A stretch of 64,000 nt of DNA from Escherichia coli (GTDB taxonomy: Bacteria > Pseudomonadota > Gammaproteobacteria > Enterobacterales > Enterobacteriaceae), in the NCBI RefSeq assembly GCF_045037415.1, contig NZ_CP173438.1, one strand, 5' to 3'. The notes below the pieces were generated by a model that was given only the letters and a program-made list of their open reading frames with translations, ran no database searches and was not told the origin of the DNA. The stretch's first letter is position 1. Every line of letters starts with the position of its first letter. This document shows positions 6,971 through 8,347 of this stretch, one piece after another. Both the position numbers and the translations under genes were made by a program.

Positions 6971-8347
6971 TTACTGACTTTGTTCCACCTTCGTATCCAG
7001 TAAAATGACATAGCGATTCAGCAACTGATTTAACCGGGTATCAATCTGCGTCAACAGCGTCGGCGAAATCTCTCCGGTCTGTTTTTGCTCTTCCAGTTGC
7101 CGAAGCAGTTCTTCCAGCGGCGGCTCCTTTAACGACTGCCGGATGCCGTACACCGCCGTTTTTAGTTCCGAACCGGTCAGATATCTCCCCTTACGTTCAT
7201 CCAGTGCATCCAGTTGTGCCGACAGGCGCTGTAGCTGACTCTGCGCCTGTGCGTAGCCATTCAGTGCCTCTGCGGACAGGGCGCTCAGTTCCCGCTGTTT
7301 ACGCCACTGCACGTTCAGCGCCCTGACCTGAGGATTATCCGGCCACAGGGCATCAAGCTGGCGTAGCTGGCGATATCCCTGCTCCAGCGGCCAGCGGGCA
7401 GGTAATTTGTTTAACTGCTCCAGTTGCATCTGACTTGCCGCAATTGTTCTGTCCTGAGCCAGCAGCGCCTTATCCTTTACATCCAGCTTTGCCAGTTCGC
7501 CGCTCTCCAGCGACTGCGGCAACGGCATGACAGACAGTTGTATTCGCTGGATTAGCGCGTCCGGCTGATTAAGCTGCGACCAGCCCCATAATCCTGTTCC
7601 GCCGAGACCGGCCATCACAACCATTCCGGCCATAAATATCGGCCATGTCCGCTGTCGGGAGATTTCAGGGGATGACACGGGTGGACTGGCATCCTTATCG
7701 TTTTGCTGAGCGGGTCTCGTTGCAAAAACCGGCTGTGGACTTTCTTCTGACTTTTTCGGTTGATTCATTTCCCGGCGGGGTAATTCAGGGGGAGTGATAG
7801 TGGTTTCCGCTCCCTGAGGCGCCAGCCGTTCCAGACGCAATGCGGTATTGCGAAACTGCCCGGCCAGCACATCCAGTTTCGTCATATGCCACAGTTCACA
7901 CTGTTGCAGCGTGGTTTCGATGGCGGAAAGATGCTGTACACAACGGTAGATCTGCGGCAGATCCTGATACTGAATATCCAGCGTTCTCAGTGCCTGCTGC
8001 ATTTTTTCTGTGACCCAGCTGAGCAGTGATATTCTGGAATGTACCTGTACCGGCCAGAAGTCAGCCCAGCGCTGGAGCAGTATATCCAGTGAGCCGAGTC
8101 CGTCTGCCATCCCTGCCAGCCCCTGCCGTCTGGTTATCGCCAGTACGTAACAGACCAGCGTCTGTAGTTCCACGCCATTTTGCCGGAACAGCGCGAGGCA
8201 GAGTTTTTCCACCTGACGCCAGTCCACATCCGGTCGGGCCGGGTGAGTCAGTTTACTCATTTCAGCCTGCAGTTCACCGGATTCCTTATAAGTACAGGGA
8301 TCGCCGCCCATGACGAACTGGCTGATAAAATTCGCGTTACTTGCCAT
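6971..8347 (-). CDS. ImpA_N-domain T6SS-associated protein with a central transmembrane segment (TagA/VasL-like)
   Basis: 458 aa; the N-terminal region resembles the ImpA_N (TssA N-terminal) domain; hydrophobic segment …IFMAGMVVMAGLGGTGLWGW…; Q/L-rich C-terminal part; its start codon abuts the tssE stop. Confidence 0.5.
   Translation of the reverse strand: MASNANFISQFVMGGDPCTYKESGELQAEMSKLTHPARPDVDWRQVEKLCLALFRQNGVELQTLVCYVLAITRRQGLAGMADGLGSLDILLQRWADFWPVQVHSRISLLSWVTEKMQQALRTLDIQYQDLPQIYRCVQHLSAIETTLQQCELWHMTKLDVLAGQFRNTALRLERLAPQGAETTITPPELPRREMNQPKKSEESPQPVFATRPAQQNDKDASPPVSSPEISRQRTWPIFMAGMVVMAGLGGTGLWGWSQLNQPDALIQRIQLSVMPLPQSLESGELAKLDVKDKALLAQDRTIAASQMQLEQLNKLPARWPLEQGYRQLRQLDALWPDNPQVRALNVQWRKQRELSALSAEALNGYAQAQSQLQRLSAQLDALDERKGRYLTGSELKTAVYGIRQSLKEPPLEELLRQLEEQKQTGEISPTLLTQIDTRLNQLLNRYVILLDTKVEQSQ

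Follow-up and report, generated by a model that had tools for sequence, protein, structure and literature searches.

The window analysed here is a 64,000-nucleotide stretch of Escherichia coli DNA (contig NZ_CP173438.1) that carries a type VI secretion system (T6SS) gene cluster. Its minus-strand gene tagA, which starts with ATG in the open reading frame (ORF) listing of the window, in all probability encodes TagA (TsmA, class B TssA-like), an accessory protein of the T6SS-1 (T6SSi2) machine of E. coli that serves as a sheath membrane anchor. The gene is a known, already annotated member of a characterised family: the coding sequence (CDS) is that of RefSeq WP_000157819.1, named "VasL domain-containing protein" and identical in strain SK1144, and the 458-residue ORF of the initial annotation, made from the sequence, recurs as the same RefSeq CDS in identical genomes. 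The gene, the parts of its product (in amino acids, aa) and the accompanying tssA are as follows.

6971..8347, minus strand: tagA (VasL domain-containing protein), complete CDS with its stop codon, 458 aa
7823..8290, minus strand: N-terminal all-alpha domain, TssA Nt1/ImpA_N fold, aa about 20-175
8012..8278, minus strand: Pfam ImpA_N match, aa 24-112
7652..7807, minus strand: predicted disordered linker rich in Pro, Gln, Glu and Ser, aa 181-232
7580..7645, minus strand: hydrophobic, Gly-rich, Trp-flanked helix, predicted membrane anchor, aa 235-256
7004..7432, minus strand: VasL domain (PF12486), all-alpha, aa 306-448
14499..16136, minus strand: tssA, long form (ImpA_N + VasJ), 545 aa, 56% identical to TssA of enteroaggregative E. 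coli (EAEC)

Domain architecture and homology

An ImpA_N-like N-terminus had been proposed initially, and a Pfam search bears this out, with ImpA_N (PF06812) matching aa 24-112 at an E-value of 1.2e-11 (45.2 bits vs. a gathering cut-off of 26.9). The Pfam match to VasL covers profile positions 2-145 of 147 (E 2.8e-39, 134.8 bits). An AlphaFold2 model built from an alignment of 44 sequences (mean predicted local distance difference test score, pLDDT, 75) comprises a confident all-alpha N-domain (aa about 20-175; pLDDT 80-93), a disordered linker (aa 181-232; pLDDT <50), a single helix (aa 235-259), and a confident all-alpha C-domain (aa 298-457; pLDDT 80-90) of about 9 helices of 5-29 residues. 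The linker is 19% Pro, and is gapped and poorly conserved in the alignment. Relative to the allele of E. coli O103:H2, tagA has 47 nucleotide differences that produce 14 amino-acid changes, six of which sit in the linker; the ratio of nonsynonymous to synonymous substitution rates (dN/dS) of 0.13 points to purifying selection on the gene.

The C-terminal 202 aa are rich in Leu (18.8%) and Gln (13.9%), as described at the outset, but the probable coiled coil assigned to them did not hold up. By a crude home-made heptad a/d score (neither COILS nor Marcoil), this region reaches 0.47, which is the level of its shuffles (0.45 +/- 0.12, with 46% at least as high), and the VasL domain is modelled as a bundle of short helices, into which even the longest predicted helices (26 and 29 aa) pack. 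Searching the PDB by sequence with the full-length protein gave only a chance match (E 0.56, a dioxygenase) and no solved TagA or VasL structure, and a Foldseek search of the model against the PDB gave only the N-domain of TssA (6hs5, E 0.012) and non-significant TPR-like matches; neither search found a solved relative of the VasL domain.

The window protein thus combines ImpA_N, a hydrophobic segment after ImpA_N, and, at the C-terminus, a VasL domain, which is the architecture of the E. coli type of TagA, and its cluster encodes a long TssA at the position initially named for it, where both ImpA_N and VasJ were found. Beside the sci-1 cluster of EAEC 042, the sole ORF with both ImpA_N and VasL is intact and 455 aa long (L003:24071..25438; NC_017626.1 4884070..4885437); from its position we take it to be the TagA of Santin et al. 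(2018), with EC042_4550 as the reported locus tag. The window protein is 33% identical to this ORF over 443 aa (E 9e-68), and this full-length homology, with the ImpA_N, helix and VasL order, supports the earlier reading as a TssA paralog of the TagA/VasL type. TagA proteins with VasL co-occur with long TssA in T6SS clusters (PMC7896307). A search of 5.8 billion proteins returned 735 homologues spread over Enterobacterales, with Salmonella, Citrobacter, Yersinia, Photorhabdus, Serratia, and Cronobacter among the genera represented; among the matches listed, nearly all full-length homologues carry PF06812 and PF12486 and are named VasL or ImpA. At a coverage of at least 80% of its length, tagA is present in 1316 of 5426 complete genomes, with identity of at least 96% among the rows sampled, and many complete genomes share the gene together with its flanks at 100% identity.

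Hydrophobic helix and membrane attachment

The hydrophobic segment, aa 235-256 (WPIFMAGMVVMAGLGGTGLWGW), has Trp on either side and contains the peak Kyte-Doolittle 19-residue mean of the protein (1.51 at aa 237-255; the runner-up elsewhere is 0.97). Among the 44 homologues of the alignment (31-81% identity), the segment is found at a constant position with F238 and G241 invariant, and its hydropathy has a median of 1.8, reaching the usual transmembrane threshold of 1.6 in 35 sequences. The central hydrophobic helix already noticed in the initial annotation is therefore confirmed by hydropathy, by conservation, and by the modelled helix at aa 235-259, and it appears to be a conserved membrane-interacting helix. 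Published accounts disagree as to whether TagA attachment is integral or peripheral, and one of them refers to a "transmembrane region" (PMC6745524).

If the helix spans the membrane, TagA would be genuinely bitopic in the inner membrane, with ImpA_N in the cytoplasm and VasL in the periplasm, the latter touching the envelope (peptidoglycan or the periplasmic parts of TssM/TssJ) rather than working in the cytoplasm. We regard this topology as unlikely. It would fit a single helix of 22-25 residues with Trp at each end, the family median above the transmembrane threshold, the published wording just cited, and an N-in/C-out charge bias of the flanks, which have a family mean of 2.6 K/R on the N side vs. 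1.1 on a more acidic C side. However, C-terminal mNeonGreen fusions of Vibrio cholerae TagA are active and fluoresce at the cell periphery (PMC6745524), which is more easily explained by a cytoplasmic C-terminus; in addition, the segment of the window protein is Gly-rich and reaches only 1.51, and the sequence of the VasL domain is devoid of Cys pairs or other periplasmic hallmarks. Still more doubtful is the extension of this topology by which a periplasmic VasL domain would make TagA a trans-membrane coupler of the cytoplasmic distal sheath cap to envelope components at the far side of the cell, as is the related possibility that the intact tagA of sequence type 131 (ST131) clade C, once tssM was lost, retained a membrane function independent of the T6SS (see below).

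Assignment to TagA and proposed function

One alternative is that the window protein duplicates TssA as a redundant cap able to prime and chaperone sheath polymerisation; it has ImpA_N in common with TssA and gives weak, sub-threshold matches to the TssA equivalog models. These scores are far under the cut-offs, though (TIGR03362, 66.1 vs. 230.1 bits; TIGR03363, 26 vs. 160.9 bits), and Pfam detected no VasJ-type C-terminal domain in the protein, which also has no other TssA C-terminal oligomerisation domain. On these grounds the protein is TssA-like at its N-terminus yet not a TssA, and the redundant-TssA reading, which we consider very improbable, was rejected. Class B proteins, moreover, antagonise or replace TssA and do not stand in for it (PMC6745524). 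Least probable is a membrane protein that regulates T6SS expression in the manner of an anti-sigma factor. This reading was rejected because the weak NCBIfam match to an anti-sigma factor model that suggests it (over the linker and hydrophobic helix, E 0.0045) reaches just 17 bits, the cut-off being 100, and is confined to low-complexity and hydrophobic sequence; no sigma factor gene is adjacent, and both folded domains are accounted for by T6SS families.

Certain points weigh against the assignment to TagA. The equation of the 042 ORF with EC042_4550 depends on its being the unique ImpA_N + VasL ORF by sci-1. Identity to EAEC TagA is just 33%, compared with 56-66% for TssA, TssE, and TssF; the hydrophobic helix, at 1.51, is slightly under the usual transmembrane threshold; and the role of the orthologue in this strain would be carried over from the TagA proteins of EAEC and V. 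cholerae.

For those proteins, TssA binding, localisation at the distal end, and stopping and holding of the sheath have been described (PMC6745524, PMC6450956). TagA binds TssA, and that of V. cholerae additionally binds TssK, ClpV, and VipA/B; upon deletion, sheaths fail to stop growing and undergo sliding, bending, detachment or breakage, their static extended phase disappears, and EAEC shows lowered killing (PMC6745524, PMC6450956, PMC6730261, PMC7896307). Overproduction traps TssA at the membrane, thereby blocking assembly (PMC6745524). By analogy with these homologues, the hydrophobic helix would hold TagA at the inner membrane, and its ImpA_N-containing cytoplasmic part would act as the TssA/sheath-binding module, the expected partner being the TssA encoded at 14499..16136. 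Sheath polymerisation would then stop, with the distal end clamped to the membrane, and this clamp would keep the sheath extended and straight until firing. This mechanism, we infer, best accounts for the window protein. In place of the generic "VasL domain-containing protein", the gene ought to carry the label tagA (T6SS sheath membrane anchor); the case has little importance beyond correct annotation, since membrane topology and the part played by VasL are questions for the whole TagA family.

Genomic context and state of the T6SS

Further features of the cluster and its borders are listed below.

6698..6729, minus strand: predicted intrinsic terminator hairpin with a U7 tract, ~240 nt beyond the tagA stop
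8347..8775, minus strand: tssE, upstream of tagA (Pfam GPW_gp25 and NCBIfam TssE equivalog)
17870..20450, minus strand: ISEc12 (IS21 family, istA + istB) in tssM, a 2581-bp insertion relative to SK1144
47485..48006: tssB, adjoining the tRNA-Met genes
48621..48917: three tandem tRNA-Met(CAT) genes in the metZWV arrangement, immediately past tssB, at the far island border

The tssE TGA and the tagA ATG share one base (TGATG, in the context ...TAC TGATG), an overlap that implies translational coupling; tssJ, tssG, and tssF are found further upstream of tssE (Pfam/NCBIfam). Folding of the terminator region (6690..6740) gave -16.2 kcal/mol (z -4.6), and none of 200 shuffles was as stable. A simple terminator scan had missed this hairpin, the loop and bulge of which are outside the scan rules, and direct folding revealed its strength. 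The hairpin appears to end the minus-strand T6SS transcription unit after tagA, which itself appears to be co-transcribed with tssE as the final gene of the T6SS cluster. The gene that follows (5715..6671) runs convergently towards tagA and codes for a homologue of phosphoglycerate dehydrogenase. In E. coli O103:H2 PV16-126 (L004), a MucR-family regulator is downstream of tagA and replaces the phosphoglycerate dehydrogenase. The flank adjoining tagA varies between lineages.

Strain SK1144, in which tssM is intact and which is 99.99% identical over 17.9 kb, served as the reference for the ISEc12 insertion. The element encodes IstA, a 513-aa protein with rve and Mu-transposase C domains, and the 249-aa IstB. 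It has inverted repeats at its termini (TGCGTATT.../...AATACGCA), is accompanied by a 5-bp duplication of the target (GCAGT, which reads ACTGC on the gene strand), and divides tssM into fragments at 16102..17869 (1768 bp) and 20451..22020 (1570 bp). RefSeq annotates ISEc12 inside an ImcF/TssM gene in many genomes. Among ST131 clade C/H30 genomes, 99.8% have been reported to carry this same tssM lesion, which is interpreted as inactivating the T6SS (Cummins et al., PMC10711316; also PMC12282107), and the fragment lengths and duplication in the window match that lesion exactly (PMC10711316). This makes it very likely that the window holds the ISEc12-inactivated ST131 clade C version of the T6SS island and that the strain belongs to ST131 clade C.

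Also relative to SK1144, an extra A at 13589 splits a PAAR-domain gene (13074..14493, minus strand; 472 aa) into overlapping ORFs of 314 and 178 aa, likely a second inactivating mutation in the island. With tssM split by ISEc12 and the PAAR-domain gene frameshifted, the T6SS machine is most likely dead in this genome. As tagA itself matches the SK1144 allele in full, it is an intact, recently orphaned component of a probably non-functional apparatus, and with the T6SS inactivated by ISEc12 the TagA anchor is probably idle in the window genome. The insertion element is upstream of tagA in the same direction of transcription, and may exert a polar effect that lowers tagA expression.

From tagA to amiC there are ~5.5 kb of sugar-metabolism genes still within the wider island, encoding a PRD-domain protein, phosphotransferase system (PTS) EIIC, MalY/PatB, KpsF/GutQ, and a dehydrogenase; amiC on one side and the three tRNA-Met genes on the other enclose the entire island of T6SS and sugar-utilisation genes. 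The "island edge" at which tagA was initially placed thus holds for the T6SS gene cluster, of which tagA is the last gene; it does not hold for the inserted region as a whole, which continues to amiC.

Within 24545..38830, three vgrG genes form one cluster, and after one of them come genes for DUF4123, DUF3304, and Tle1 phospholipase proteins. The segments common to the vgrG copies are 84-96% identical and are possible recombination substrates. ORFs without a Pfam match occur downstream of a vgrG (787 and 216 aa, within 33472..36482) and downstream of the PAAR gene (135 and 141 aa, within 12175..13084, a patch of 35% GC), and their position suggests that they are effector/immunity candidates.

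Comparison with characterised relatives

In comparisons of core proteins with EAEC 042, run one pair at a time, identities were 56% for TssA, 56% for TssE, and 66% for TssF, which indicates that the two clusters belong to the same T6SS subclass, the E. coli "T6SS1" or T6SSi2; T6SSi2 is the subclass found in ST131 (PMC12282107). By the same comparisons, TagA is the fastest-evolving component of the T6SS1 cluster. The TagA proteins of the two clusters (458 vs. 455 aa) have ImpA_N, linker, hydrophobic segment, and VasL in register, and in both clusters tagA accompanies a long TssA. They differ in that tssE and tagA, which overlap in the window, are set apart in EAEC 042 by about 4.4 kb with four unrelated genes, and in that the segment of the window protein is Gly/Met-rich and less hydrophobic (1.51 vs. 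1.99).

RefSeq/PGAP breaks the EAEC-type tagA up into three fragments marked as pseudogenes ("ImpA N-terminal domain", "POTRA domain", and "VasL domain"), whereas the DNA forms one unbroken ORF, of 455 aa in 042 and of 452 aa in L002:14938..16296. This three-fragment call on an experimentally studied gene looks like a systematic annotation artefact.

[quoted passage not shown] It is very distant in sequence, with 19.3% identity to EAEC TagA (PMC6745524), and the C-terminus of this Vibrio form ("TagAV") is treated as different from that of the E. coli form (PMC7896307). The long TssA (class A/TsaC), represented by the tssA product of the window and by the Burkholderia cenocepacia structure PDB 6hs5, differs from TagA in its ring-forming VasJ C-terminus, in the absence of a hydrophobic helix, and in its role, in that TssA caps and chaperones the growing sheath and does not anchor it.
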